A stretch of DNA of 15,654 bases from Candidatus Thorarchaeota archaeon. GTDB lineage: Archaea > Asgardarchaeota > Thorarchaeia > Thorarchaeales > Thorarchaeaceae. The DNA lies in NCBI GenBank assembly GCA_020348985.1, contig CP070761.1, positions 2,114,016 to 2,129,669 on the forward strand. Direction: 5' to 3'. Each line of letters starts with the position of its first letter. Position 1 is the stretch's first letter. The notes beneath the pieces were generated by a model. The model was given only the letters and a program-made list of their open reading frames with translations, ran no database searches and had not been told where the DNA came from. The translations under genes and the position numbers were made by a program. This document shows positions 1 through 15,654 of this stretch, in pieces.

Positions 1-3000
1 AATCTGTCGTTGACTGACCTTCTTGGTGCTGTTTACCTGTGGGCATCATATACAAGCACGAGTCCACTGCTCTGGGAGGATGCAGATTCACTTCCTGCTT
101 CGCAAGTCACGCTCACCAAGTATCTTTTCGACCTCTCAATTGCATCAAACGGCACGAACTTCCATCTCGATGAGATTGTGCACGTATGGGGCCAGCTGAC
201 GTATCAGCATAATGGTACAGAGCTGGCTGGCCAGCCTATCCGTATATACTGGACCAATTTGACTGGGCAGACTGTATTCCAGTGGTACACCACTAATCTC
301 ACAGGCTGGTTTGACTTCTACTATAACATCTCAATCTCCAATGATGCGCCGGGGTCAGTCAGCATATACGCTGAATTTGTATCAGGAAGTCAATGGTGGA
401 ATGACAGTAGTTCCTCTTCTCTGGGATTCAATCTGGACAGATACTCATTTGATCTGACAATCACAACTAACTTCCTGTGGTATTACCTAGATGAAGTCGT
501 CCAAGTTTCTGGACAGCTCACGTATCAGACCAATGGCACTGGGCTTGCATTCTGGCCGATTCGAATATACTGGGATTGGAACAATGGTACTCTGGTTTTC
601 TTTGATGGGCCCACAACAGACGGCTCAGGAAACTACAATTTCAACTATAATCTGACTCCAGGAGTCGACAATGAAGCCACAGTCACAATCTGGGCGGAAT
701 TTGCACATTCCAATCCACTATGGAATTATAGGGACTCGACAACCACAGACATCGATCTCTTCAAGCGAACATCAATACTGTTGATGATTCCGACACCGAA
801 TGTGTTGTACCTAAACGAGTCAATTACGTTCACAGCCTCGCTAATCCTTCAGAACACTACTCCGATTGTGGGGGCGCAAGTTTCGATCTGGTGGAACTTC
901 CTGAACGGCACAACTATCCGCATCACGACACAAGCCACAAACGGGAGCGGCATTGTTGAATGGCTCTTCTCCGGAATGGATGACTTTCCACCGGGTGCAT
1001 TTCTGGTATACGCAGACTGGGCTGGCGATGCTCTCATCAATGGCGATTCATCACCAGCACAAGGCGTCACGGTTCAGAGATGGGCCACTGATATCACAGG
1101 GTTCAGTACCGGTGGTGCCACTGACTATCGCCCAACAGAAACTGTTCCCATCACAGGCACCCTGAGATATGTCTCAGGTCCCACTCCGTATGGAGGTGTC
1201 TTGGTAAGGATCCTAGTCGAAGGATTCGAGGTAGGCACGGCTCCAACACAATCGGATGGATCTTTTTCATTCAACTGGTACATCCCTGCTGACACTACCA
1301 CAGGGGCCTACGATGTTACAGTCTCCTTTATCTCCAGTGTGAATTGGATCGCAGATTTCACAACTGCTCCGATAACACTAAACATAGACGCATTCGATCT
1401 GGATTCAAGCACGTTCATAGTAATTCCAGTAGTCCCGACTGTTCTGTATCTTGACGGCCAACTGAATATTTCCGGCATTCTGCAGCTCGACAATGGCACC
1501 TTCTACTCAGGTGCGGAAGTGTATCTATACTGGGACCACGCCAATGATGTAACTGGACCTCTTCTCATTCGTGTCACGCCTCTGATATCTGCAGGTGACG
1601 GAAGGTTCCAGTATGTGTTCACGCCAGATTCTGCAACTCCTCTAGGACTCGCAGATGTCTGGGCTGAAGTGACACCCGCCGAGGCATACATAACGCAATG
1701 GACGTCGCCTATCAGAGTGATAGACATTCAACAGATTCCGGTTAACCTAGTCTCAGACGCAAGTGATTTTCTCAGATATAGGGGAGACTCGCTGACCATC
1801 TTCGGTAACTTGACTTTTGCCAATGGTAGTGGCATGGATGGTTTCGATGTCATTCTTGAATGGGATGGAGTACCTACTGACAGAACTACAGTGACCGATG
1901 CCATCGATGGCTATTTCGAGTTCACTCTTAGTATCGCGTGGAACCAGGACCTTGGAATGATCACTTATCGAGTCATCTTTGATCGCCCTACAGTAGCTTT
2001 TGAGGCCGCGGAATATTCAGCACAGATTGAGATCAGAGACCTTGTAACCGTATATCTCGATACATCAAGTGTTACGTACGTGGTCCGTGGTAATGACCTA
2101 GTACTTACGGGCTTCATTGAGAACGCGAATGGTAATGTTCCAGGTGTACCTCTCGAGGCTTTCATAGATGGAAACCCCGAGATTACTGGAGCATCCTCTA
2201 GCGATGGCACTTTTCAACTGACTTTGCCAATAGATATTGCATACTCTGGAGGGTCACACACAATAACAGTAGATCTGCAGTCAGGATTCTACTATGAGGG
2301 CACCTCAGATTCCTTCACTATTGACTTCCGCATTGCTACAACTCTCGTCGTCCGTTTTGACCAGATAAGTGATGTCATGCCAGGAGAGAGATTCGGAGCT
2401 GTCATTTCACTGTTTGACGATCAAGGAGCTGCGGTTCCTGGAGCTATGTTGACCTTCTATCTCAATGGAACTGAAATCCAAGCTGTTGGCTCCATTGATA
2501 CCACAGGAACAAGTACGACGCAATTCGAAGTTGCTTCTAGCATAGACCAGCGCGGATTGTACGTTCTGGAGGCAAGTTTCGCAGGATTTGGAGACTATGA
2601 AGGCAACATAGCGGAGACTGCCGATTCAATCCACGTATTTACTGATGTCTATTTCGTGAACAATTCGCCACAAGCTGTCACGGTGGGCCAGACGCTCACC
2701 CTTCGGGGTCAGCTTCTTGACGCGCCCCTCGCCGAAGGAGGTATGCCCATAGTGCGTCGGTCCATTACTGTCAATCTCAATGGAACCGGCACTGCCAATC
2801 TAGTAACAGACTTAGACGGACAGTTCAGCCATGTCGTCGGGACAGTCCGTGATGATTTCGTAAGTTACAGTTTCTACGTCACATTGAATTCATTAGTGTC
2901 TTCAATTCAATCAGATTCATTTCAAATCGCATTACAAACAGGAGGTTTTCCGTTGCAATTAGGTGACTACTTACTACCATTTCTAGCGCTTGCAGGTGCA

Positions 3001-3414
3001 ATCGTGGTAGTCCTGCTCTACCTATACTTCGTCAAGGGAATGTTTCGGGGGCCGATTATCTCGCCCACGGTTGACATTCCTTCGAAGCTTCGTAACATAA
3101 AGAAGCTTGCAGATGCTGGGAAGTACAGTGCAGCTATAACACTAGCGTACCGTACATTTGAGCAGATGTGTGGGACGAAGATTGGGTCCGAGCGGTTACA
3201 CTCAGAGACAGCACGCGAATACATTGAGAGAGTGCTTAAGTCACTCCCATTGGATGCAGCGTCTGTCGAGGAGTTCGTGCAGGCCTATGAGGAGGCACGT
3301 TTCTCCGACCACGAGATAAACCGCGAGCGATATGAGCTAGCGATAAAGATCTTCACAGATCTATATCCACGAATAGAGAGAACTAGTGCTACAGTTCCGA
3401 CCGCAGAAACATAG
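1..3414 (+). CDS. Giant membrane-anchored surface glycoprotein (5'-partial) with tandem Ig/macroglobulin-like beta repeats, one C-terminal TM helix and a cytoplasmic DUF4129-like domain
   Basis: Frame 1 is open from base 1 (aat ctg tcg ttg...), so the true start is probably upstream of the window. About 9 repeats of ~100-120 aa with pattern (Y/F)xx(D/G)Exhxh(S/T)GxLx...NG..h.Gxxhxhxw. Many N-x-S/T sequons. TM segment YLLPFLALAGAIVVVLLYLYFV at ~2968-3033. C-terminal AITLAYRTFE...SETAREY...YEEARFS matches DUF4129 motifs. Confidence 0.85.
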   Translation, partial: NLSLTDLLGAVYLWASYTSTSPLLWEDADSLPASQVTLTKYLFDLSIASNGTNFHLDEIVHVWGQLTYQHNGTELAGQPIRIYWTNLTGQTVFQWYTTNLTGWFDFYYNISISNDAPGSVSIYAEFVSGSQWWNDSSSSSLGFNLDRYSFDLTITTNFLWYYLDEVVQVSGQLTYQTNGTGLAFWPIRIYWDWNNGTLVFFDGPTTDGSGNYNFNYNLTPGVDNEATVTIWAEFAHSNPLWNYRDSTTTDIDLFKRTSILLMIPTPNVLYLNESITFTASLILQNTTPIVGAQVSIWWNFLNGTTIRITTQATNGSGIVEWLFSGMDDFPPGAFLVYADWAGDALINGDSSPAQGVTVQRWATDITGFSTGGATDYRPTETVPITGTLRYVSGPTPYGGVLVRILVEGFEVGTAPTQSDGSFSFNWYIPADTTTGAYDVTVSFISSVNWIADFTTAPITLNIDAFDLDSSTFIVIPVVPTVLYLDGQLNISGILQLDNGTFYSGAEVYLYWDHANDVTGPLLIRVTPLISAGDGRFQYVFTPDSATPLGLADVWAEVTPAEAYITQWTSPIRVIDIQQIPVNLVSDASDFLRYRGDSLTIFGNLTFANGSGMDGFDVILEWDGVPTDRTTVTDAIDGYFEFTLSIAWNQDLGMITYRVIFDRPTVAFEAAEYSAQIEIRDLVTVYLDTSSVTYVVRGNDLVLTGFIENANGNVPGVPLEAFIDGNPEITGASSSDGTFQLTLPIDIAYSGGSHTITVDLQSGFYYEGTSDSFTIDFRIATTLVVRFDQISDVMPGERFGAVISLFDDQGAAVPGAMLTFYLNGTEIQAVGSIDTTGTSTTQFEVASSIDQRGLYVLEASFAGFGDYEGNIAETADSIHVFTDVYFVNNSPQAVTVGQTLTLRGQLLDAPLAEGGMPIVRRSITVNLNGTGTANLVTDLDGQFSHVVGTVRDDFVSYSFYVTLNSLVSSIQSDSFQIALQTGGFPLQLGDYLLPFLALAGAIVVVLLYLYFVKGMFRGPIISPTVDIPSKLRNIKKLADAGKYSAAITLAYRTFEQMCGTKIGSERLHSETAREYIERVLKSLPLDAASVEEFVQAYEEARFSDHEINRERYELAIKIFTDLYPRIERTSATVPTAET

Positions 3415-3424
3415 GTGAAATCGC

Positions 3425-4816
3425 TTGGGATGGAAAGAGACCCTTCAAGTTGTCCTCTTTGTACTGTCTTGGTTTCCAGTCGGCTTCTTGATTGGCTCGA
3501 CACTATTTGGTGTTGGAGGTACATATCCACAGGACTTCAGCATCTACAATGAGGAATACAATGGTCTCTCCGACTTCCGAACGCGACTTGAGACCGACCA
3601 ATACACTGTCCAGGCTATACAGTCGTCAATGAGCGTAGTCTCCAGGTATAATGGCAGTGCGGTTCTCGTCATCATGGGCCCTGTCAGGGATTTCAGCTTT
3701 GATGCCATACTGACGTTGACTTTACATCTGCAAGCAGGAGGTAGCGTGCTAATCGCAGACGATTTCGGGTCTGCCAACAGCTCATTCTACTGGTTCAATG
3801 AATACCTGATCAACTTCTTTGGTGGCGATCAACTAGCGGCATTCGGTGTTCAGGGCTTTCTATCCTATACAGGCGGCGTTCTATATGATCTAGACTCCTA
3901 CTATGAGAGTCCTAGATTACCTGTCATTCATGATTTTGATAGCCTCATGTATGGCAACATGTTCGGCCAAGGGGTCAATGCCCTTGGAGGGCTTCATCTA
4001 AACTGGGCATCAACTTTGAGTCCGCGATGTCTACTGGGAGCTGCCGGAGTTGGCTGGAGCACCGTTCGGGCATGGAGTGAGACAGATGTCAACTCCACAG
4101 ACCCGGTTCCTGATGACTATGAATGGGCCGGAAGACTGCCGGTAGCAGGAGCGATTGAGCTGGGTCCAGGCAGACTGTTTGCCATGAGTGACCCCAGCGC
4201 ATTCATGAATGACATGTGGCAAGAGTTCCCAGGCAATGAGCAGTTCGCAATGAACGTAATCAATTGGCTAACACATGGAGACACAAGTGTCCCAATACTC
4301 TTCTCAGAGCAGCTCCTAGTTCAGCCTTGGAATTCTGCAGAGCTGTTCTATGGGCTCTATTTGGGACGTGCGCTGTGGATGACAACCAACATCTTCATGG
4401 CACCCTTCTATCCCTTGACGACGGCGATTGGAATCAAGAAGTATCTCCCAGACATGAAGAAACCTGAAGTGAAGAGCGTTTCAGATGTATTCATGCGCCG
4501 TGGACAGACTTACTTCAGTGAACGAATGACGTATTATCGGACCGAAGGAAACTATGCACGAGTAATCAAAATGTTGTATCGTAAGTTGAGACGTGGGCTC
4601 AAACGTAAACATATGTGGCAGCAATATGACCCCAGGCGGCTTTGGGACTTGTACCGCTACAAGGACCCAAGCATGAAAGAAGGGGAATTCTTCAAGAAGA
4701 TCAAACGGATTGAGGAGATATCATCTGATCCCTCAATGAAGATCAAAGAATCAGAGATGATGGAGTTATTCTTCTGGATGAGAAATATCCAGGCTTTACT
4801 AATCGAATCAAAATGA
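3425..4816 (+). CDS. DUF4350-like (GIFT/GldG-related) membrane-anchored protein of MoxR operons
   Basis: TTG start 6 nt after AGGTGA (3413-3418, which overlaps the previous stop). N-terminal signal/TM. Motifs FSIYNEEYNGLSDF, LVIMGP, GGSVLIADDFG, GRLFAMSDPSAFMNDM and NEQFAMNVINWL are typical of DUF4350 proteins. Gene context next to MoxR and DUF58. Confidence 0.8.
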   Translation: MGWKETLQVVLFVLSWFPVGFLIGSTLFGVGGTYPQDFSIYNEEYNGLSDFRTRLETDQYTVQAIQSSMSVVSRYNGSAVLVIMGPVRDFSFDAILTLTLHLQAGGSVLIADDFGSANSSFYWFNEYLINFFGGDQLAAFGVQGFLSYTGGVLYDLDSYYESPRLPVIHDFDSLMYGNMFGQGVNALGGLHLNWASTLSPRCLLGAAGVGWSTVRAWSETDVNSTDPVPDDYEWAGRLPVAGAIELGPGRLFAMSDPSAFMNDMWQEFPGNEQFAMNVINWLTHGDTSVPILFSEQLLVQPWNSAELFYGLYLGRALWMTTNIFMAPFYPLTTAIGIKKYLPDMKKPEVKSVSDVFMRRGQTYFSERMTYYRTEGNYARVIKMLYRKLRRGLKRKHMWQQYDPRRLWDLYRYKDPSMKEGEFFKKIKRIEEISSDPSMKIKESEMMELFFWMRNIQALLIESK

Positions 4817-4837
4817 AATGAGGTGGAAGACAAAAAC

Positions 4838-5824
4838 ATGACATCAGAAGCAAATGGCCAAGGCCTTGGCGATCTGGGTCCGCCAATGACCATAGACGAA
4901 GTTCATGCGATGACCTCTGATATAATCAGAGAGTGTGGACGAATCATTGTAGGAAAGACTGACATCCTTCGTGATGTCCTAATCGCATTCCTATCAAACG
5001 GCCACGTGGTCCTAGAGGGTGTCCCTGGTCTGGCAAAAACCTACATGGCACGCACTTTTGCGTCCATTCTCGGTTGTGCCTTCAAGCGTATTCAGCTGAC
5101 AGTAGACACGCTGCCAGCAGACCTGCTTGGAAGTAACGTATTCAATCAGAAGACGGGAGAATTCTGGTTCCGTAAGGGACCCGTATTCGCTAATCTCGTC
5201 CTTGCTGATGAAATAAACCGTTGTCCTCCCAAGTCACAGAGTGCGTTGCTGGAAGTGATGGAGGAGCGACAGGTTTCAACCGAAGGAATCACAAGAAAGC
5301 TACCAGATCCGTTCCTGATCATTGCGACACAAAACCCCGTTGAACAGGAGGGAACGTATCCACTACCTGAGGCTCAACTTGACCGATTCATGTTCAGGTT
5401 GATCCTTGACTATCCGACAGGTAGTGAGGAGGCTGAGGTAATCCGAAGAAAGCATGTCGGAGAGGCAAGCGATCTCCGAGTCCTTACCGATCCTACTTTG
5501 CTAGTACGAATGCAGAACGCGTGTGCAACAGTGTTTCTTGAGGATGATATCATTAGCTACATACGTGACATCATAGTCCGAACAAGGAACGATCCACAGA
5601 TTTTGTTGGGCGGGTCTCCGAGAGCGTCACTTGTCTTGATGAATGCATCAAAGACCCGGGCCGCAATGCACGGACGTGACTATGTCGTACCAGAAGATGT
5701 CCGGAAGCTTTCGGTTCAGACGCTGAATCATAGGCTCATCCTGAAGCCTGAAGCCGAACTTGAGGGACTCACTGTCGATAGAGTTGCGGCAAAGATACTT
5801 GGTGAGATCGACTGTCCTAGGTGA
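4838..5824 (+). CDS. moxR: MoxR-family AAA+ ATPase
   Basis: Walker A variant GVPGLAKT, RIQLTVDTLPADLLG, Walker B VLADEINR, QSALLEVMEERQVS, ATQNPVEQEGTYPLPEAQLDRF, GGSPRAS. ATG 4838 is preferred over GTG 4823 because that GTG lies inside the SD GAGGTGG (4820-4826). Confidence 0.95.
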   Translation: MTSEANGQGLGDLGPPMTIDEVHAMTSDIIRECGRIIVGKTDILRDVLIAFLSNGHVVLEGVPGLAKTYMARTFASILGCAFKRIQLTVDTLPADLLGSNVFNQKTGEFWFRKGPVFANLVLADEINRCPPKSQSALLEVMEERQVSTEGITRKLPDPFLIIATQNPVEQEGTYPLPEAQLDRFMFRLILDYPTGSEEAEVIRRKHVGEASDLRVLTDPTLLVRMQNACATVFLEDDIISYIRDIIVRTRNDPQILLGGSPRASLVLMNASKTRAAMHGRDYVVPEDVRKLSVQTLNHRLILKPEAELEGLTVDRVAAKILGEIDCPR

Positions 5825-5860
5825 ATGCTACAGTGGCGATGCAGCAGGAGAAGATGTGAA

Positions 5861-7183
5861 GTGATCACACAAAGAGGCTTCCTAGTGATGTTTTCAGGGG
5901 TCCTCCTACTGGCAAGTGGGTTCAGTTTTGTAAACTGGTATTTGACGGTCATTGGCGTTTACCTTCTTGTCGGTCTAGTGGTCACGTTGCCTCTCTTTGC
6001 CATGACAGCGAATATTGCAGGCATTGAAGTAGAACGAGATGTGGACAAGACTCAAGTTTTCTCAGGAGATTTCCTAAGAGTCAAAGTCACAATCCACAAT
6101 AGGTCTCGCAGACACTTCGACTTCATCGAGGTGCATGACGCATATCCTGAAACCTGGATTTTGGCGATTGGCGAGAATTTCATGGCCTCTCGAATTGAAC
6201 CGGGCCGAAGCATAACCTTTTCCTACATACTGCAGGCAAGAATGCGAGGTCGATACGAGCTTGGGCCAACCAATGTCATAATGCGTGATCGCCTTGGTTT
6301 TCACTACTACACTCGTTCGCTTGTAGCGCCAACTGAGGTTTTAGTTTACCCAACCTGGAAGGATGTTCGACGGTTGGAGGCTCTTGGCAAGCAGCGACAG
6401 CTGGGTCTCATGTTTGGCTCTCATCGGACTAAGATTGTAGGTATGGGAACTGAGTTTGCGGGCTTTCGTGAGTACGTTCCAGGTGATCCGTTCAGGCTCA
6501 TTGACTGGAAAAGCAGTGCCCGAAGGGGAGAGATGGTTGTAAAGCAGTTCGAAATGGAAAAGAACGTGCAAATCGTATGCATGGTCGATACAAGCGGAAG
6601 CATGGGAAACGGCTATCCCGAGAATACAAAGCTGGAATATGCAATACGAGCTGCTGTGATGCTCACTCACATGGGACTTGAGAAGAACGATCTTGTGGGA
6701 ACCTGTGTGTTCTCTGATGGCGTCCATAGTTATGTGCCACCAGGTACTCTACAGACGCACATGTATGACGTCCTAGAAACGTTGGCTATGGCCGAACCAA
6801 AGGGCTGGAGCAACTTCGAGGCCGCAATAGACTATGTGGTACAAAGAACTCGAAAGAGAACGGTCTTCTTCTGGCTAACTGATCTAGAGGAGTCTCCAGC
6901 GCCGCTGCTAAATGCGATGAAGACCCTTGTTGCAAATGGGCATCGTGCTTTCGTCATAAGTCCCTTCGGACCTTGGTTTGAAGCTCCCGTCGGGCAGTTC
7001 GGGCCGGTCGAGAGGGTTCTGTCCGAGGCTGTCTCAGAAGAGCTCTGGGAGAGACGTGGGAAAATATCCCGCGCCCTTGCACGGTTTGGTATACCCGTTG
7101 TCAACGTTGGCCCTGAAGACTTCCTGCCCACAATCATTCGAATGTATGAACAGGCCAAACAGAAAGGAGTTGGTTTGGTGTGA
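5861..7183 (+). CDS. DUF58 / vWA-domain protein (MoxR partner) with two N-terminal TM helices
   Basis: EFAGFREYVPGDPFRLIDWKSSAR is the DUF58 signature; MIDAS-like DTSGSM; RGRYELGP. In-frame GTG 5861 follows purine-rich GGAGAAGATGTGA and is a more plausible start than ATG 5825. Confidence 0.92.
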   Translation: MITQRGFLVMFSGVLLLASGFSFVNWYLTVIGVYLLVGLVVTLPLFAMTANIAGIEVERDVDKTQVFSGDFLRVKVTIHNRSRRHFDFIEVHDAYPETWILAIGENFMASRIEPGRSITFSYILQARMRGRYELGPTNVIMRDRLGFHYYTRSLVAPTEVLVYPTWKDVRRLEALGKQRQLGLMFGSHRTKIVGMGTEFAGFREYVPGDPFRLIDWKSSARRGEMVVKQFEMEKNVQIVCMVDTSGSMGNGYPENTKLEYAIRAAVMLTHMGLEKNDLVGTCVFSDGVHSYVPPGTLQTHMYDVLETLAMAEPKGWSNFEAAIDYVVQRTRKRTVFFWLTDLEESPAPLLNAMKTLVANGHRAFVISPFGPWFEAPVGQFGPVERVLSEAVSEELWERRGKISRALARFGIPVVNVGPEDFLPTIIRMYEQAKQKGVGLV

Positions 7184-8589
7184 AGGTTGTAACGTGGATT
7201 CTTCGGATCCTCTCAACGGCGGCCTTCATTGGAATGTGCTACTTAGTATATACAATCATGGACGTGAACGGGGTCTGGGGATGGGCTGCTCCGTACGAGT
7301 TTGTTGTCACTGTCTTCCGCCTCCTATCCCTATTCTTCTTCTTTCTTACCATGATTCTCATGTACGGACTTTCTTCAATGTTCATGGGTGCACAAGGCGC
7401 TGACCAGATTGCGGTCAACATATACAACACACTGGTCCTTAGAATGTGGTACATGCAGCCCTATGGAGTAGACAGCCCAATCGTGAGTGTTGGTGAAGTA
7501 TTCTCGCGTTTTGGCCAGGATTTCGCTGTCATTCTTGACATTCTCTGGAACAATACCTTTCTTTTCCTATACTTCCTGTGTGCAGGCATTGGCGTGGCGC
7601 TCTTCCTCCAATCAATCTACCGACTTGAGCACAAGTTCGTCGGAGGTGCATTCGTCGCTATTCAGGCTATTCTGCTTATAGCGGCTGCTCAGAGCTACAT
7701 CATGGCAACAGTCTCGTACACACTTCCCGACTTTCCAAATGGCTTTCCATTAGATTTCGTCGCCTTTCTTGGAGGCCAAGTTCAAATCGTGGCACTTGTC
7801 TCGTTTGCATATCTTGAGATTAGTTACCAGATGATCTACAGCAACTCAGTCGGCAAGCCCGTAGAGGATAGAGAAGAGACTCTCAAGAAGCAGTTGCTTG
7901 CTCTTCGGCAGGCCACCAGAAAACAAGATGCTATTGAGAAGGGTGAAAAAGTCAGCACTACGGGAATGAGCCGATCTTCCGGGGCCATAGCATTCTCGTT
8001 CTTGAGAGAAGCCATCGAAAGAAAGGTAATTGGCAGCCAATCTGCTCTCGAGAACCTAGATGCTGTGGCAGATGTGAGAAGATTACAGATTTTCGTAGAC
8101 GAGCTGCTCTCTGCCGACCCAAATGCGCGAGATGAGCTCACTGCCAAAGCTGCGTCTCCTTCCAGTAGCTATGTAATTGGTTCGACAGTGTTGGGGTCAG
8201 TAATTCGTTTCACAAGTGTTGTTGCTGTCTCATTCATACTGATGAGCCCACTTGTTCTTCTGAGCGCAATGGATCTGCCCCCTGGAATAGCAAACAGTGT
8301 GGAGCTTGTTCAGCCAGAGATTGTGCTTCTGTTCCTAGTGCCAATCGTGCTGCTGTTTCCATTCGCTGCGTCTGTCATTGGCTGGATAACTGGACGAGAG
8401 GAGACAGAGGAAATCAAACTGACGAAAGAAGAGAAGGAAGAACTGAAGAAGAAGAAGAAGGAGTTTGAGCAGAGAAAGAAAGATGCTGCAAAGGCCAGGA
8501 AGGCACGAGAGACGGCCAGAAAGGAGCGAAAGAAGGAAGAAGAGGCAGATGAATGGGACAAGGCACTGGAAGAAATTTACCGTGGATAG
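7180..8589 (+). CDS. Uncharacterised polytopic membrane protein with a soluble helical middle domain and a Lys/Glu-rich C-terminal coiled tail
   Basis: GTGA start/stop overlap with the DUF58 gene. Roughly 7-8 hydrophobic segments, a charged mid-region (EDREETLKKQLLALRQ...) and a tail KEEKEELKKKKKEFEQRKK...EEEADEWDKALEEIY. Confidence 0.8.
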   Translation: MKVVTWILRILSTAAFIGMCYLVYTIMDVNGVWGWAAPYEFVVTVFRLLSLFFFFLTMILMYGLSSMFMGAQGADQIAVNIYNTLVLRMWYMQPYGVDSPIVSVGEVFSRFGQDFAVILDILWNNTFLFLYFLCAGIGVALFLQSIYRLEHKFVGGAFVAIQAILLIAAAQSYIMATVSYTLPDFPNGFPLDFVAFLGGQVQIVALVSFAYLEISYQMIYSNSVGKPVEDREETLKKQLLALRQATRKQDAIEKGEKVSTTGMSRSSGAIAFSFLREAIERKVIGSQSALENLDAVADVRRLQIFVDELLSADPNARDELTAKAASPSSSYVIGSTVLGSVIRFTSVVAVSFILMSPLVLLSAMDLPPGIANSVELVQPEIVLLFLVPIVLLFPFAASVIGWITGREETEEIKLTKEEKEELKKKKKEFEQRKKDAAKARKARETARKERKKEEEADEWDKALEEIYRG

Positions 8590-8595
8590 CCAGAC

Positions 8596-9588
8596 ATGGA
8601 GGAGAATGGCGTGCCCACAGTCTGTCTGAGCCATGGTGATTTGGATGGTATAACATCCGGTGCCTTGGGTCTACTAGCTTTTCCGGGTTCAGATTTCTAT
8701 TTCACTCGCCCATCTCAGATACATCAAGATCTTTATCGCATTGCAAAGGACAAGCCTGAATCCGTTCTAGTGAGCGACATTGCCGTAAACGAGAGCAGAC
8801 TGAACGACATTCTGAGGGCTATCAGCCGTTTTCCGGACGAATCCAAGGTTATTTGGGTAGATCATCACCCCTTGGGCGCAGCTTACAAACGCAAGCTGGC
8901 CCAAAAGATCGAGTTTGTCCACGAGATAGGGCATTGTGCCGCTGAACTTGTATACCGTCGTTTTGAGCAGAGTCTTCCTGAAAATGCCCTTCGACTTGCA
9001 CTCTACGGGGCAATAGGGGACTACTGTGATAGTACGCCGTTTGCCAAGACACACCTTGACGATTTCGACAAAAGGACTCTTTATCTCGAAGCGGGACTCC
9101 TTGTTCAGGCGCTTCAGGAAATTGACTACAGGCGAGAATCGAAAGATCTCGTCAGGCAGCTCTCGCTAGGCGTCGAGCCAAGCTCTATGAATGACATCGT
9201 GACTCTGGCCATCAAAGCCACGCGAATAGAACACGAAGTCTTCAGATACGTTAGTAAGAACGCTCGAAAGATGGGGCCTATTGGATACGTATTGGATATG
9301 CCAATAGGAGGATACAGAGGAAAGTCTGCCAAGTTTGCCGCATATGTTACAGACTCCAAGGTGGGAATCAGTGCTCGGTCTACTGATGATGATGAAGTGG
9401 ACATTAGTATGAGGATTCGTCGCTCCTCTGTCAACCTCAACCAAGCCCTCAACAAGGTCTTGTCTGGCATCCCGGGAGCTCATGGCGGGGGGCATCCTGC
9501 AGCTGCAGGAGCTAGCATGAGCAAGGTATCGTTCCCGAAGTTCCTACAGGAACTAGCGGAATTTGTAAACCGCGCATCAAAGAGCTAG
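8596..9588 (+). CDS. DHH-family phosphoesterase with DHHA1 domain (RecJ/NrnA-like)
   Basis: Motifs SHGDLDG, SDIA, VDHH, GAIGD, DISMR and GGGHPAAAGA occur in the canonical order. Confidence 0.92.
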   Translation: MEENGVPTVCLSHGDLDGITSGALGLLAFPGSDFYFTRPSQIHQDLYRIAKDKPESVLVSDIAVNESRLNDILRAISRFPDESKVIWVDHHPLGAAYKRKLAQKIEFVHEIGHCAAELVYRRFEQSLPENALRLALYGAIGDYCDSTPFAKTHLDDFDKRTLYLEAGLLVQALQEIDYRRESKDLVRQLSLGVEPSSMNDIVTLAIKATRIEHEVFRYVSKNARKMGPIGYVLDMPIGGYRGKSAKFAAYVTDSKVGISARSTDDDEVDISMRIRRSSVNLNQALNKVLSGIPGAHGGGHPAAAGASMSKVSFPKFLQELAEFVNRASKS

Positions 9589-12327: not shown

Positions 12328-12708
12328 GTGTCAGATCCAGTAATGGAAGCATATACCAAAGCATACAATGATTCAGGTCAGCAGATTCAGGCCTTCGGAG
12401 TAATCAACACTGGAGGACAGGTCCTTTGGCAGAGCAACAATTGGGATCTCACTGCAGACGCAGCCGCTCTTGTCGGTGCAGTAGCAGGGAATGCCCCCAG
12501 CGTTGTTCAGAATCAAGTCAAGTATAGTGTAATTGGTCGAGGTCCTGAGCGACTAGTGGCTCGCAGTGTTGCAGGCCACGGCGTTCTTGTCATGGCGAAG
12601 GTTGATGATGACAAGTGGGCTGTTGCTTGGGCGACCGCAGAAGCGGCACCTGATGCCGTTCATGTTGATGTCGATAGGGCAGCAAGGACAATCAAGGGGA
12701 AGATCTAG
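12328..12708 (+). CDS. Asgard-type profilin (actin regulator), copy 1
   Basis: 126 aa. IQAFGVINTGGQVLWQSNNWD, VKYSV...ERLVARSVAGHGVLVM and the C-terminal helix follow the Asgard profilin pattern (QxxNWD, KY, ER, GxG(H)). SD GGAGTGA at 12314-12320 precedes the GTG start. Confidence 0.85.
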   Translation: MSDPVMEAYTKAYNDSGQQIQAFGVINTGGQVLWQSNNWDLTADAAALVGAVAGNAPSVVQNQVKYSVIGRGPERLVARSVAGHGVLVMAKVDDDKWAVAWATAEAAPDAVHVDVDRAARTIKGKI

Positions 12709-12787
12709 CACATAGTATCCTTCTCCAGTTCGAGCTAGATTCGAAGTTCGAGCCTGGGAGCGCTCAATCTGAACAAGGTGCATTACC

Positions 12788-13162
12788 GTGGAAGCCATTA
12801 TCGACGGTGTCTGGCAGATACTGTATTCAAACAATCCGAAGATACAGGCATTCGCAGTCAGCAAGGACTCGAAAGTCATCTGGCAGACCTCGAATTGGGA
12901 TCCATCAAAGCAGATTGGTGATCTACTGGCTGCAGTCGATTCTGCTGCATCCTCCGTCACGCTCAACAAAGTCACGTACGACAGAGTCTCATCCAATGTC
13001 ACCTCTTACGTGTCATCAAATGGTAAAGGACAGGGTCATCTCTTAATGGCTCGGGTTGAGAAAGGCGTCTGGCTAATTGCTTGGGCGACTCCCGAATCCG
13101 TTCCGGAACTGGCTGCAGTCGACCTGCAAAAGACGGCGATAGATCTCACGGGTCAACTATGA
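12788..13162 (+). CDS. Asgard-type profilin-like protein, copy 2 (diverged paralogue)
   Basis: 124 aa, colinear with copy 1: IQAF, WQTSNWD, VTY, NGKGQGHLLMARV, WLIAWATPE. SD AGGTG at 12776-12780 precedes the GTG start. Confidence 0.8.
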   Translation: MEAIIDGVWQILYSNNPKIQAFAVSKDSKVIWQTSNWDPSKQIGDLLAAVDSAASSVTLNKVTYDRVSSNVTSYVSSNGKGQGHLLMARVEKGVWLIAWATPESVPELAAVDLQKTAIDLTGQL

Positions 13163-13207: not shown

Positions 13208-13957
13208 TCAATCGTTGGGGAAGACAATACTTCTCAACTTACGAAAGACTTCAACTACTCTATCATTTCCAAATGAATAGAGTTCAACAAGAGTATCGTA
13301 TTGCTTCAAGACTTGCTTGTCGGCAACATCGCCTCTGATTCGGCTGACAACTTTCTCGCGACCTTGTGCCTGCAACGCATTGAGTTCGACCCAAAGATCC
13401 ACGACCTCCTTCTTCTGTTCCTCTGTGAGGCCTAGGTTGAAAGATCTTGACATATCATCAACGTATGTTGTCAACTTCCTGCGCGCAGCTTTGCCTTCTG
13501 CGCCCAGGTGACTAGTAGTCACGACGAACCCTTTCGATGTCCTGCGATAGTAGTCAGTTGTTCTATTCCCCTTTGTAACAGTTCCGAATTTGATTACATA
13601 GCCAGCATCAATTAGCTTCGGCAGGTGATGGTATACCTGGTTCTTTGTGATCTCATCACATCCAACGCACTCGGGGGAAAGCTTGACAATCTCAACAACA
13701 GAAAGTGCATGTCTCTTAACTTCGCGCTGTCGGATTATTCTGTCTCCAGTCACCTCGTCCCTGCTTTCGGATGTGATAGTATCATCAATGCCCTCTCTCA
13801 GGACCTTGAGAATCTGAACCCTCACAGTATCGTCAAGTTCAGCTGCCCTCTTCGGATCCCTGACAAATTCAACATCAGTAACGACCCTCTTAGCTTCCTC
13901 GGTCATTTCAAACTCTATGTCTTCTCGCGTAAATGTATCTTGTAGTTCATCGGACAT
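13208..13957 (-). CDS. Winged helix-turn-helix (ArsR-like) transcriptional regulator with a C-terminal helical domain
   Basis: RVQILKVL...LSVVEIVKL...TKNQVYHHLPKLIDAGYV...TTDYYRRT is a wHTH signature. SD GAGGTGG lies just upstream of the ATG. Confidence 0.82.
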   Translation of the reverse strand: MSDELQDTFTREDIEFEMTEEAKRVVTDVEFVRDPKRAAELDDTVRVQILKVLREGIDDTITSESRDEVTGDRIIRQREVKRHALSVVEIVKLSPECVGCDEITKNQVYHHLPKLIDAGYVIKFGTVTKGNRTTDYYRRTSKGFVVTTSHLGAEGKAARRKLTTYVDDMSRSFNLGLTEEQKKEVVDLWVELNALQAQGREKVVSRIRGDVADKQVLKQYDTLVELYSFGNDRVVEVFRKLRSIVFPND

Positions 13958-14040: not shown

Positions 14041-14051
14041 AAATATATAAG
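14041..14051 (-). promoter_or_regulatory. Putative TATA box for the wHTH regulator gene
   Basis: The minus strand reads CTTATATATTT, about 85 nt upstream of ATG 13957, in an AT-rich intergenic region. Confidence 0.5.
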
Positions 14052-14346
14052 TTTGTTGGACACACCATTCATCAACTTTTGTTTGCCCAGCAAACAAACA
14101 ATCACTGCATTTGAACATTGCATCTCTAGTCAAACGGTTTAGACTGCCATTCTGCCGTTTAATATCGAAATTCAGAGCTTTCAGGCAATCATTGCATACA
14201 TCTCTCCAGGTTCCATAAGAAGCAGGAGCACAGAATAATAACTAACGTGTTTATCACTCTGGCCAATCATAGTCTTTTTGGCAATCAGAACCGTCCAAGT
14301 TTACAATTTGAACCATTCCATATCTGAATGGTTGGCTGACCAAACC

Positions 14347-14389: not shown

Positions 14390-14499
14390 GGTTTGGATTA
14401 CACACAAAAGCGAACGTGGTGGTTCGGAAATGAGCTGTCTTGGTATAGATGGCAGCGTTTCTCGTAACCCACCGGGTAACGAGAATAGATATCCAAACC
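14390..14499 (+). ncRNA. Candidate structured RNA or leader (four-way junction), family unknown
   Basis: Closing helix GGTTTGGAT (14390-98)/ATCCAAACC (14491-99) encloses three hairpins: CGAAC/GTTCG (14411-26), GCTGTC/GGCAGC (14434-56) and TTCTCGT-A-ACCC/GGGT-A-ACGAGAA (14459-85). Strand inferred from the TATA box. Confidence 0.45.
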
Positions 14500-14545
14500 T
14501 TGCGTTCGATTCGGTGAAGCAGACTGTTACAATCGGTGATATACA

Positions 14546-14653
14546 ATGGCTCTAGTAAAGAACACTCGAAAGAGAACTGTGATGAAGAACAAGAAAGTCG
14601 CACAGGCCCTAGTGGCGGATGCGATTGAATTCGCATACACTTACCGGAGGTAA
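14546..14653 (+). CDS. Small basic peptide 1, 35 aa: MALVKNTRKRTVMKNKKVAQALVADAIEFAYTYRR
   Basis: SD GGTGAT (14535-40) 5 nt before the ATG; similar to the next micro-ORF. Confidence 0.65.
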   Translation: MALVKNTRKRTVMKNKKVAQALVADAIEFAYTYRR

Positions 14654-14658
14654 ACTGA

Positions 14659-14745
14659 ATGGCACTTGCAAAGAGAAACAAGAATCTACTCCAGAAGAAG
14701 AGTATCTCGACAAAGGCTGTTGCTTACGCATACTTGCGCAGGTAG
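14659..14745 (+). CDS. Small basic peptide 2, 28 aa: MALAKRNKNLLQKKSISTKAVAYAYLRR
   Basis: SD GGAGGT (14646-51, overlapping the end of peptide 1) 7 nt before the ATG; similar to peptide 1 with synonymous codon differences. Confidence 0.65.
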   Translation: MALAKRNKNLLQKKSISTKAVAYAYLRR

Positions 14746-14751
14746 ATTGAG

Positions 14752-14871
14752 ATGATCCGAAAGACGGAATCTGATCAATCCGAGGTGCAAAAGCACAGTG
14801 ACGGCTCTGCTTACTCAACAAAGCGTCGAAGCATGACTCTGGAGGATGTGCTCGGGCTTGAACCAACCTGA
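14752..14871 (+). CDS. Small peptide 3, 39 aa: MIRKTESDQSEVQKHSDGSAYSTKRRSMTLEDVLGLEPT
   Basis: ATG 6 nt after the peptide 2 stop; weak SD AGGT (14740-43); internal AYSTKRR echoes the AY..RR ends of peptides 1 and 2. Confidence 0.4.
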   Translation: MIRKTESDQSEVQKHSDGSAYSTKRRSMTLEDVLGLEPT

Positions 14872-14942
14872 GCACTCCTAACTGTTTAGTTCTATCAATC
14901 CTGGTTCACTGCTAAATCTCGCTTTTGGCCAAATTTCGCCAA

Positions 14943-15654
14943 TCACTTTCTGAACACAATCTGGTAGAATGTATCGTTCATAACGTATGAAATCTCTATA
15001 TCTTTGGCCTTGTCAGGAAGGTGCTCCAAGGGCGGCGTGGCTGCAAACAACGAGTTTGCTTCAATAATCTGTTTTCCTCTCTCAGACTTGCGTACCTGAG
15101 GCGAAAGACCCTCATCAACGACAACCACAGTGCCCTCCTTTTTGACAATCCTCAACATCTCATTCAGGGCGCCAGGTATGTCCGAGAACGTGTTTATGCC
15201 TCCAGTGTGAAGCACCATATCGAAACACGAGTCAATGTAGGGAATGTTGAAGACACTGCCATAAACAAGATTCAATGGCAAATCGTTCTCCTTCGCTTTT
15301 CTTCTTGAGACTTCTAGCATACCTGTAGACAGATCCATGCCATGAAGGTTGAAGCGTCCCATTTCGGTGTCGTAGAGTTCAGCCAATGCCACGAAATTCG
15401 CTGCCGTCCCGATGCTCACGTCAATGATTCTCAACGGACCCTCGATCGGGATGAATTGGGCCATCTGTTGCCTTTCTTTCATCATATCAATACCGAGCCA
15501 TTCATCGTACTGTTTCACACGTTCGTCATACACTTCGGCCATTTCGTTGTATTCTGCAATCCACTTCGCATCCTCCTCGCTTATCTGTGGATACACCAAT
15601 GATGGTATCCCTTTGCTCACAGTCCATGCATGACCTTTCTCGCAAACAAGCGTA
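14943..15654 (-). CDS. Class I SAM-dependent methyltransferase (UbiE/Methyltransf_11-like) with an N-terminal Trm112-like segment; 5'-partial
   Basis: Motif I variant IIDVSIGTA, GMDLSTGML, IPYIDSCFDMV, ALNEMLRIVKKEG. The frame stays open to the window edge and reads TLVCEKGHAWTVSKGIPSL, so GTG 15620 is probably not the real start. Confidence 0.88.
   Translation of the reverse strand, partial: TLVCEKGHAWTVSKGIPSLVYPQISEEDAKWIAEYNEMAEVYDERVKQYDEWLGIDMMKERQQMAQFIPIEGPLRIIDVSIGTAANFVALAELYDTEMGRFNLHGMDLSTGMLEVSRRKAKENDLPLNLVYGSVFNIPYIDSCFDMVLHTGGINTFSDIPGALNEMLRIVKKEGTVVVVDEGLSPQVRKSERGKQIIEANSLFAATPPLEHLPDKAKDIEISYVMNDTFYQIVFRK

Follow-up and report, generated by a model that had tools for sequence, protein, structure and literature searches.

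The window analysed here, that is, the whole stretch of 15,654 nucleotides, carries a cassette of three small ORFs that, judging from their conservation, are real genes forming an operon, and whose peptides appear to have no known relative in the databases and literature searched. The cassette is divergent from the gene of a PH1932-like winged-helix (wHTH) regulator, and both are preceded by the same putative operator. We tentatively regard the cassette as contributing the small proteins to a peptide-handling regulon gated by a repressor, in which the peptides would be cytoplasmic binding effectors acting on a circuit of MFS transporter and regulator; this reading is held at a tentative level because the only positive evidence on a partner is the association with MFS genes. 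The features of the region are listed below.

13208-13957, minus strand: gene of the wHTH regulator, 249 aa, PH1932-like (ArsR/PadR-type wHTH and C-terminal helical bundle)
14043-14065, minus strand: TATA box of the regulator gene (14043-50) and abutting operator copy (14051-65)
14081-14095: perfect operator palindrome GTTTG-N5-CAAAC, kept in the close relative L087
14331-14354, plus strand: cassette operator (14331-45, one mismatch) directly 5' of the cassette TATA box (14347-54)
14390-14498, plus strand: long 5' leader, specific to this sub-lineage, predicted to fold well
14391-14405: second copy of the cassette operator, 3' of the TATA box, with one mismatch here and none in L087
14535-40: SD-like site of ORF1, GGTGAT
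14546-14653, plus strand: ORF1, 35-aa basic A-type peptide, tail A-I-x-[YF]-A-Y-x-Y-R-R
14646-51: SD-like site of ORF2, GGAGGT, within the final codons of ORF1
14659-14745, plus strand: ORF2, 28-aa basic A-type peptide, paralogue of ORF1
14740-43: SD-like site of ORF3, AGGT, within ORF2
14752-14871, plus strand: ORF3, encoding a 39-aa member of a second peptide family, in which an acidic C-terminal motif is conserved
14848-14875, plus strand: RNA hairpin of 11 pairs, spanning the last seven codons and the stop of ORF3
14943-15654, minus strand: class I SAM methyltransferase gene (Pfam Methyltransf_11), tail-to-tail neighbour of the cassette

Elsewhere in the window, positions 1-9588 form one run of genes for a large surface protein, a DUF4350-like protein, a MoxR AAA ATPase, a DUF58 protein, a membrane protein and a DHH phosphoesterase, beyond which lie an OPT-family transporter and a DUF167 gene on the minus strand (all identified by eye).

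Three coupled small genes restricted to Thorarchaeaceae

The sequence-only reading had described three micro-ORFs of these lengths, with SD sites embedded in the preceding genes, and both points were confirmed by the ORF coordinates and by the match of all three SD-like sites to the 16S tail GGATCACCTCC of the same genome. The ORFs do not overlap, being separated by 5 nt (ORF1/ORF2) and 6 nt (ORF2/ORF3), and their coupling is predicted to operate via the embedded SDs, not via ORF overlap.

By short-peptide tblastn, four further places in the same genome were found to encode paralogues of the first two peptides. A profile of the A-type peptides, built from 21 members, recognised nine copies in this genome, spread over five loci (E 8.5e-11 to 7e-9), supporting the proposed paralogy of the first two peptides. 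It also matched 82 of the 85 other Thorarchaeaceae genomes, with 1-13 matches per genome, and none of the 224 genomes from 29 other Asgard families; one of the three Thorarchaeaceae genomes missed by the profile carries a diverged cassette (L117). The earlier proposal of a new Asgard small-protein family was thus upheld as to the family and not as to its breadth, which is Thorarchaeaceae-specific and not Asgard-wide.

The expectation that the peptides are under selection was likewise borne out. Seven independent pairs of close cassettes gave dN/dS values of 0.21 for the last 13 codons of ORF1 and 0.34 for the rest, 0.17 for the tail of ORF2 and 0.50 for the rest, and 0.15 for the last 10 codons of ORF3 and 0.50 for the rest, each of them significant in a Fisher test; these codon comparisons (0.15-0.5) indicate purifying selection on all three ORFs. 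ORF1 had 35 codons in 21 of the 22 complete cassettes, and the lengths of ORF2 and ORF3 were 26-30 and 37-39 codons, respectively. The cassette was missing at this locus in the close metagenomic relatives L086 and L088.

Two other arrangements were observed. A sub-lineage (L098, L099, L101 and L106) combines a fast-evolving regulator with a single diverged 36-aa peptide ending in Y-R-x-S-F-x-R, and represents a natural test of regulator-peptide co-variation. At L016:6200-8100, a gene for an S41 peptidase is placed between two near-identical promoter and peptide units, upstream of an MFS gene, an arrangement that looks like a recent duplication or insertion.

Peptide anatomy and searches for relatives

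The A-type peptides (ORF1 and ORF2) frequently start with M-A-[LI]-A-K, followed by a Lys/Arg-rich linker and the tail consensus [ST]-T-x-A-I-x-[YHF]-[AS]-Y-x-Y-R-(R), in which bulky and small residues alternate, with an aromatic at every second position and then R-R; the conserved tail is preceded by an invariant small residue. This tail is conserved throughout the family, not diversified, and the ORF1 N-terminus drifts although its codon count is nearly constant. The caveat raised earlier, that the terminal AGG codon could be forced by the overlapping SD, was correct in part: ORF1 always ended in xGG AGG or AGG AGA, and one paralogue retained the SD without YRR; yet terminal copies that have no downstream ORF kept basic pairs, coded by CGT, CGC, AGA or AAG-CGG, indicating that the basic C-terminus is also selected as protein. 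The final R-R would accordingly be due partly to the SD of the next gene and partly to selection on the peptide.

ORF3 has the conserved C-terminus [TS]-x-E-[ED]-V-L-x-[LW]-E-A-T and a mostly acidic composition across cassettes, and A-type copies also exist without it. Its supposed kinship with the other two peptides through an internal AYSTKRR did not hold, as AY..RR was confined to the ORF3 of this window and its nearest relative (2 of 22 orthologues), suggesting that the motif is incidental.

The 1.8-billion-protein search returned only family members and one repetitive false positive (P0149), and no family was recovered in Pfam, NCBIfam, the PDB sequence search or the ESM Atlas. Viral contigs gave no match to a single-sequence query or to the hairpin pattern, both of low sensitivity; Rfam produced only chance lncRNA matches, and no description of the peptide family was found in the literature searches. 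Two other ideas were discarded: the tails as mimics of a host protein (0 matches in the proteome), and a fusion of ORF2 and ORF3 by TAG read-through, which is unlikely since the frame is broken in L011, L017, L072 and L079. Three ENA proteins render the ORF2 TAG as Q, and the ARAGORN tRNA listing, an incomplete list, contained no CUA tRNA.

Net charge was +4 to +11 for ORF2 and +2 to +11 for the basic peptides overall, median GRAVY values for the peptides were -0.66, -0.74 and -1.01, and the highest 11-residue Kyte-Doolittle mean was at most 1.59. No signal segment or membrane segment was found in the peptide sequences scanned, making the membrane toxin among the functions first suggested unlikely for want of a hydrophobic segment; the toxins of type I toxin-antitoxin modules differ in having a membrane-spanning helix.

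These properties bear on a leaderless multi-peptide antimicrobial, with the MFS protein as exporter or immunity factor. Aureocin A70 and garvicin KS consist of three or four tandem cationic leaderless peptides of about 30 aa, accompanied by an HTH regulator and a transporter (PMC6131525), and the cassette resembles them in its tandem cationic leaderless peptides of 26-36 aa (ORF1 and ORF2 only), its HTH regulator and its transporter. However, the GRAVY of multi-peptide leaderless bacteriocins is mostly +0.2 to +0.7, the lowest being -0.19 (PMC6131525), against about -0.7 here, so that the peptides are hydrophilic and not amphipathic; the third peptide is acidic-tailed; and the cassette is chromosomal, near-universal and conserved in one family, unlike the patchy, plasmid-borne bacteriocins. 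We consider this function improbable.

RNA elements of the cassette transcript

The cassette mRNA is predicted to be structured (z -4.0). In the 3' hairpin, 91% of the cells were paired among 50 sequences, three pairs showed two-sided changes, and the covariation score, which is inflated by kinship, exceeded all 500 shuffles and all slid controls. Mismatches were G-U in 45 cases and A-C in 9, an excess indicating that the hairpin acts as RNA on the coding strand, and by which a dif-like DNA site (11-6-11) was rejected. Selenocysteine read-through at the hairpin UGA was also rejected, given that several loci use TAG or TAA as the stop and that the two arms form Watson-Crick pairs.

A silent change in both arms (CTC to CTT together with TGA to TAA) was found in L068, L122 and L123. 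The hairpin was retained despite ORF3 decay in L018 and L042, and the acidic motif was retained despite replacement of the hairpin in L003/L071; these patterns point to a double constraint on the ORF3 3' end, from the peptide motif and from the hairpin. A T-rich run follows the hairpin in 15 of the 22 loci and is weak in this window. The hairpin probably forms the 3' end of the cassette mRNA and stabilises it.

The 5' leader gave folding z values of -4.8 here and -2.8 in L087 (two sequences only), and a metagenome scan for it yielded no match. Since its closing helix is composed of two operator half-site words about 95 nt apart, the DNA-site and RNA-helix readings are confounded. The segment 14519-14535, directly upstream of the ORF1 SD, can pair with the 5' end of the transcript or with ORF3 (repeat D1). 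A fourth ORF at 14430-14555 (41 codons, overlapping the ORF1 start and open in L087) was not supported as a gene: its score against the upstream-ORF profile did not stand out from those of shuffled sequences (73 of 500), and its codon changes were 11 non-synonymous and 5 synonymous. A conserved upstream ORF with the motif E-S-L-[YF]-x-D-[YF] was observed at L060-L075, L018, L042 and L043, and is perhaps a diverged A-type paralogue.

The regulator and its putative operator

The AF2 model of the regulator (pLDDT 87) comprises a wHTH and three to four long helices, and its Foldseek match was 1uly (E 5.6e-9). The comparison with 2cwe gave Z 13.9 over 183 residues (VIA), and that with Phr (2p4w) gave Z 8.1 over 83 residues; on this model the whole chain resembles PH1932 in fold, and the likeness to Phr is confined to the wHTH. 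PH1932 of Pyrococcus horikoshii (PDB 1uly/2cwe), an archaeal ArsR-type wHTH protein, has in common with the regulator the wHTH and the C-terminal helical dimerisation bundle over those 183 residues, whereas the two are about 20% identical and the regulator has an extra N-terminal arm and a beta-hairpin. To our knowledge, no regulon or peptide link is known for PH1932. The regulator had no HTH_3 or TPR match, and its homologues were named Thorarchaeota.

The sequence-only reading had drawn attention to synteny with the wHTH gene, and the cassette was found divergent from this gene at 37 of the 38 assessable loci. That reading did not include the operator, the regulon or the 3' RNA hairpin. When the regulator dimer was co-folded with peptide 1, the score was 0.01, which counts neither for nor against an interaction. 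Two tandem paralogous genes of 124-126 aa without a Pfam family (12328-13162) are kept 3' of the regulator in many loci.

In 38 loci, which supplied the consensus, the cassette TATA box is directly adjoined by the palindrome GGTTTG-N5-CAAACC. Operator plus TATA yielded 28 exact matches, compared with none for a reversed control pattern; across all GTDB species there were 34 exact matches, 27 of them archaeal, the bacterial number being about the chance expectation. The regulator TATA box and its operator are identical in L087 despite a diverged spacer, and second operator copies of a similar kind occur in many loci. Most regulator paralogues carry the palindrome 5' of their own gene, which ties it, by inference, to the regulator family; the palindrome is very probably the binding site of the wHTH regulator. 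The operator copies on both sides of the TATA box suggest repression, and the regulator probably represses both itself and the cassette.

Genes linked to the operators and to the regulator family

Operator plus TATA in 28 loci headed only the peptide cassette (n = 19) or one orphan MFS family (n = 9). Four of the nine operator-headed MFS genes were preceded by an A-type peptide or by a 36-aa ORF ending in F-x-R; the order of peptide then MFS was also found in this genome and in genera g4 and g10, and most cassettes had no adjacent MFS gene. The MFS family, with one gene at G000:C1:570296-571891, showed no close solved or curated relative, with only generic MFS fold matches at 11-18% identity.

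ORFs of 34-36 aa directly 5' of MFS genes, and the 35 codons of ORF1 in 21 of 22 cassettes despite N-terminal drift, would fit cis-acting leader or arrest peptides, in which a 35-residue nascent chain stalls at R-R-stop and so controls the next gene. Most cassettes, however, end in the hairpin without a long downstream gene, and ORF2 has the same tail at 26-30 codons, leaving such a role with little probability.

Regulator paralogues headed TldD/TldE operons at nine loci (Pfam-checked in this genome), an M32 carboxypeptidase with the same MFS family at two, and a large solute-binding protein (by resemblance) at two more; three paralogues had no evident peptide-handling neighbour. In the regulator tree, whose backbone support is weak, the peptidase-linked paralogues form separate clades nested among the peptide-linked regulators. 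Two genomes of another Asgard family have a TldD/E-type regulator and no detected A-type peptide, implying that the regulator family can work without the peptides. The unit of TldD/TldE and regulator paralogue is present in these two genomes as well; at L051:2722-6268, L129 and L131 the paralogue is predicted to be co-transcribed with TldD/TldE, and operators with a 6-nt spacer lie 3' of the TATA box. At L054:3690-7710, an ABC-2 exporter operon and a DUF998 gene of this genome each have a perfect GTTTG-N5-CAAAC; these genes were kept out of the regulon because the palindrome lies about 25 nt before the TATA box, they share another motif, and a small HTH gene of their own lies between them.

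The divergent layout of regulator and small ORFs recalls the rgg/shp systems of streptococci, in which small ORFs are divergent from the regulator (PMC5167397). An exported signal of this kind would be moved by the MFS protein and trimmed by peptidases, and its C-terminal piece would re-enter the cell and switch the wHTH regulator in positive feedback. The divergent small ORF, the peptidases, solute-binding proteins and peptide transport around the regulator family, and the invariant small residue before the tail are consistent with it. The regulator, however, is PH1932-like and not of the RRNPP type, lacking an HTH plus TPR-like domain and having an unrelated fold; the peptides are hydrophilic and end in R-R, with several paralogues per operon; the tail is family-wide, with no pherotypes; many copies are under a second operator; and in the two genomes of the other family the TldD/E-type regulator occurs with the peptide undetected. 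Taken together, such signalling is unlikely.

A second operator type, GT[CA]ACA-N3-TGTGAC, lies before other peptide copies. In 30 loci it preceded peptide cassettes (n = 13), a bactofilin-domain beta-helix protein (n = 14) or a membrane protein (n = 2), and no regulator was found for the bactofilin-domain gene. This gene, of about 415 aa, is represented by L055:5090-6438 (G000:C1:2787096-2788440) and is conserved across genera.

The two operator types, together with up to 13 dispersed copies, strong SDs and the 3' hairpin, would also suit abundant nucleic-acid- or ribosome-binding stress proteins, similar to SASPs or hibernation factors, with RNA or DNA gripped by the basic linker and the alternating Tyr tail, and with peptide 3 acting as a buffer; the net charge of +2 to +11 and the alternating aromatic tail before R-R agree with this. 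Like the alpha/beta SASPs, the A-type genes are dispersed as a multi-gene family and have strong SDs, terminal hairpins and variable N-termini, but the peptides are half the size of SASPs, have no sequence match or sporulation context, and are encoded in operons rather than single genes. Searches of Pfam, NCBIfam and PDB revealed no similarity to SASPs or ribosome hibernation factors, nor to a ribosomal or chromatin protein, the best match being E 0.22 to the basic uS11 N-terminus, and the link to MFS and peptidase genes is left unexplained. Binding of this type, which was among the functions first suggested, is a rather unlikely explanation, albeit one to be kept in mind.

Multi-copy small genes, structured mRNA, basic together with acidic peptides and an adjoining conserved methyltransferase could indicate a toxin-antitoxin module or RiPP precursors. 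The methyltransferase is tail-to-tail with the cassette at 33 of 41 loci and is 47-84% identical across most of the family; as an enzyme for RiPP precursors it is the sole candidate, but it lies on the opposite strand and is retained at loci that have lost the cassette. Modifying enzymes (radical SAM, P450, YcaO, Lan) were not seen 3' of 28 GGTTTG-type (type-B) and 30 second-operator (type-A) promoters, making RiPPs, one of the functions first suggested, unlikely; toxin-antitoxin modules are opposed by the lack of a membrane segment and by A-type copies without ORF3. Both functions are very improbable. Each of the readings as bacteriocin, arrest peptide, toxin-antitoxin module or RiPP either lacks a feature that was tested for or accounts for few of the copies. 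An antisense TATA-like site was found within 157 nt in 2 of 22 loci, and read-through from the convergent gene might also supply antisense RNA; relatives of the methyltransferase (L057) have an N-terminal Cys-rich piece resembling, by eye, Trm112.

Discussion

In the mechanism proposed, a wHTH dimer would bind the palindrome at the BRE position and again 3' of the TATA box, keeping both its own gene and the cassette repressed. Repression might be lifted by an effector, probably a peptide or a product of peptide breakdown, that binds the C-terminal bundle of the regulator, a step to which we give somewhat less than an even chance. A single hairpin-capped mRNA would then yield the three peptides in similar amounts; the A-type peptides would remain cytoplasmic, their aromatic/Arg tail and basic linker binding a partner within the circuit; this would most likely be the co-regulated MFS protein, contacted on its cytoplasmic face and tuned as by SgrT or MntS. 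Peptide 3, with its acidic tail, would be a partner or counterweight of the A-type peptides.

This role as cytoplasmic effectors is favoured by the exclusive placement of operator plus TATA before cassettes (19) or MFS genes (9), the recurrent order of peptide then MFS, the regulator paralogues heading TldD/TldE, M32 carboxypeptidase with MFS and solute-binding genes, and peptides that have no signal or membrane segment and a tail conserved family-wide. Against it, most cassettes lack an adjacent MFS gene, 1-13 dispersed copies seem too many for one transporter, some copies share the second operator with the bactofilin-domain gene, L086 and L088 have lost the cassette, and three regulator paralogues have no peptide-handling neighbour.

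SgrT, MntS and AcrZ are small-protein modulators of transporters in E. coli, the first two soluble and AcrZ a membrane helix. The cassette is similar to them in that tiny genes belong to the regulon of a transporter, the operator plus TATA being common to peptides and MFS; it differs in having no sequence match, multiple copies, two peptide families per operon and no AcrZ-type helix, and binding is here a prediction only. By analogy, the cassette seems to work like bacterial circuits of regulator, small protein and transporter, but to belong to none of those compared.

A further, also unlikely, reading is that the orphan MFS protein transports the A-type microproteins, or their trimmed tails, and that these also serve as the ligand of the PH1932-like repressor, in cell-to-cell signalling or a bistable switch. 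If true, such a circuit would be Asgard-native peptide sensing built from parts unrelated to bacterial RRNPP.

Because the peptides are only 28-39 aa long and the regulator is small and predicted to be soluble, binding, signalling and ribosome assays would be cheap. The finding describes a near-core trait of one Asgard family, whose genomes have up to 13 copies of microprotein genes for which no name or paper was found, and it suggests peptides as a candidate class of effector for PH1932-like regulators. It also provides a regulator, a probable operator and a regulon for Thorarchaeota, an Asgard lineage related to eukaryotes in which almost no transcription control has been mapped.
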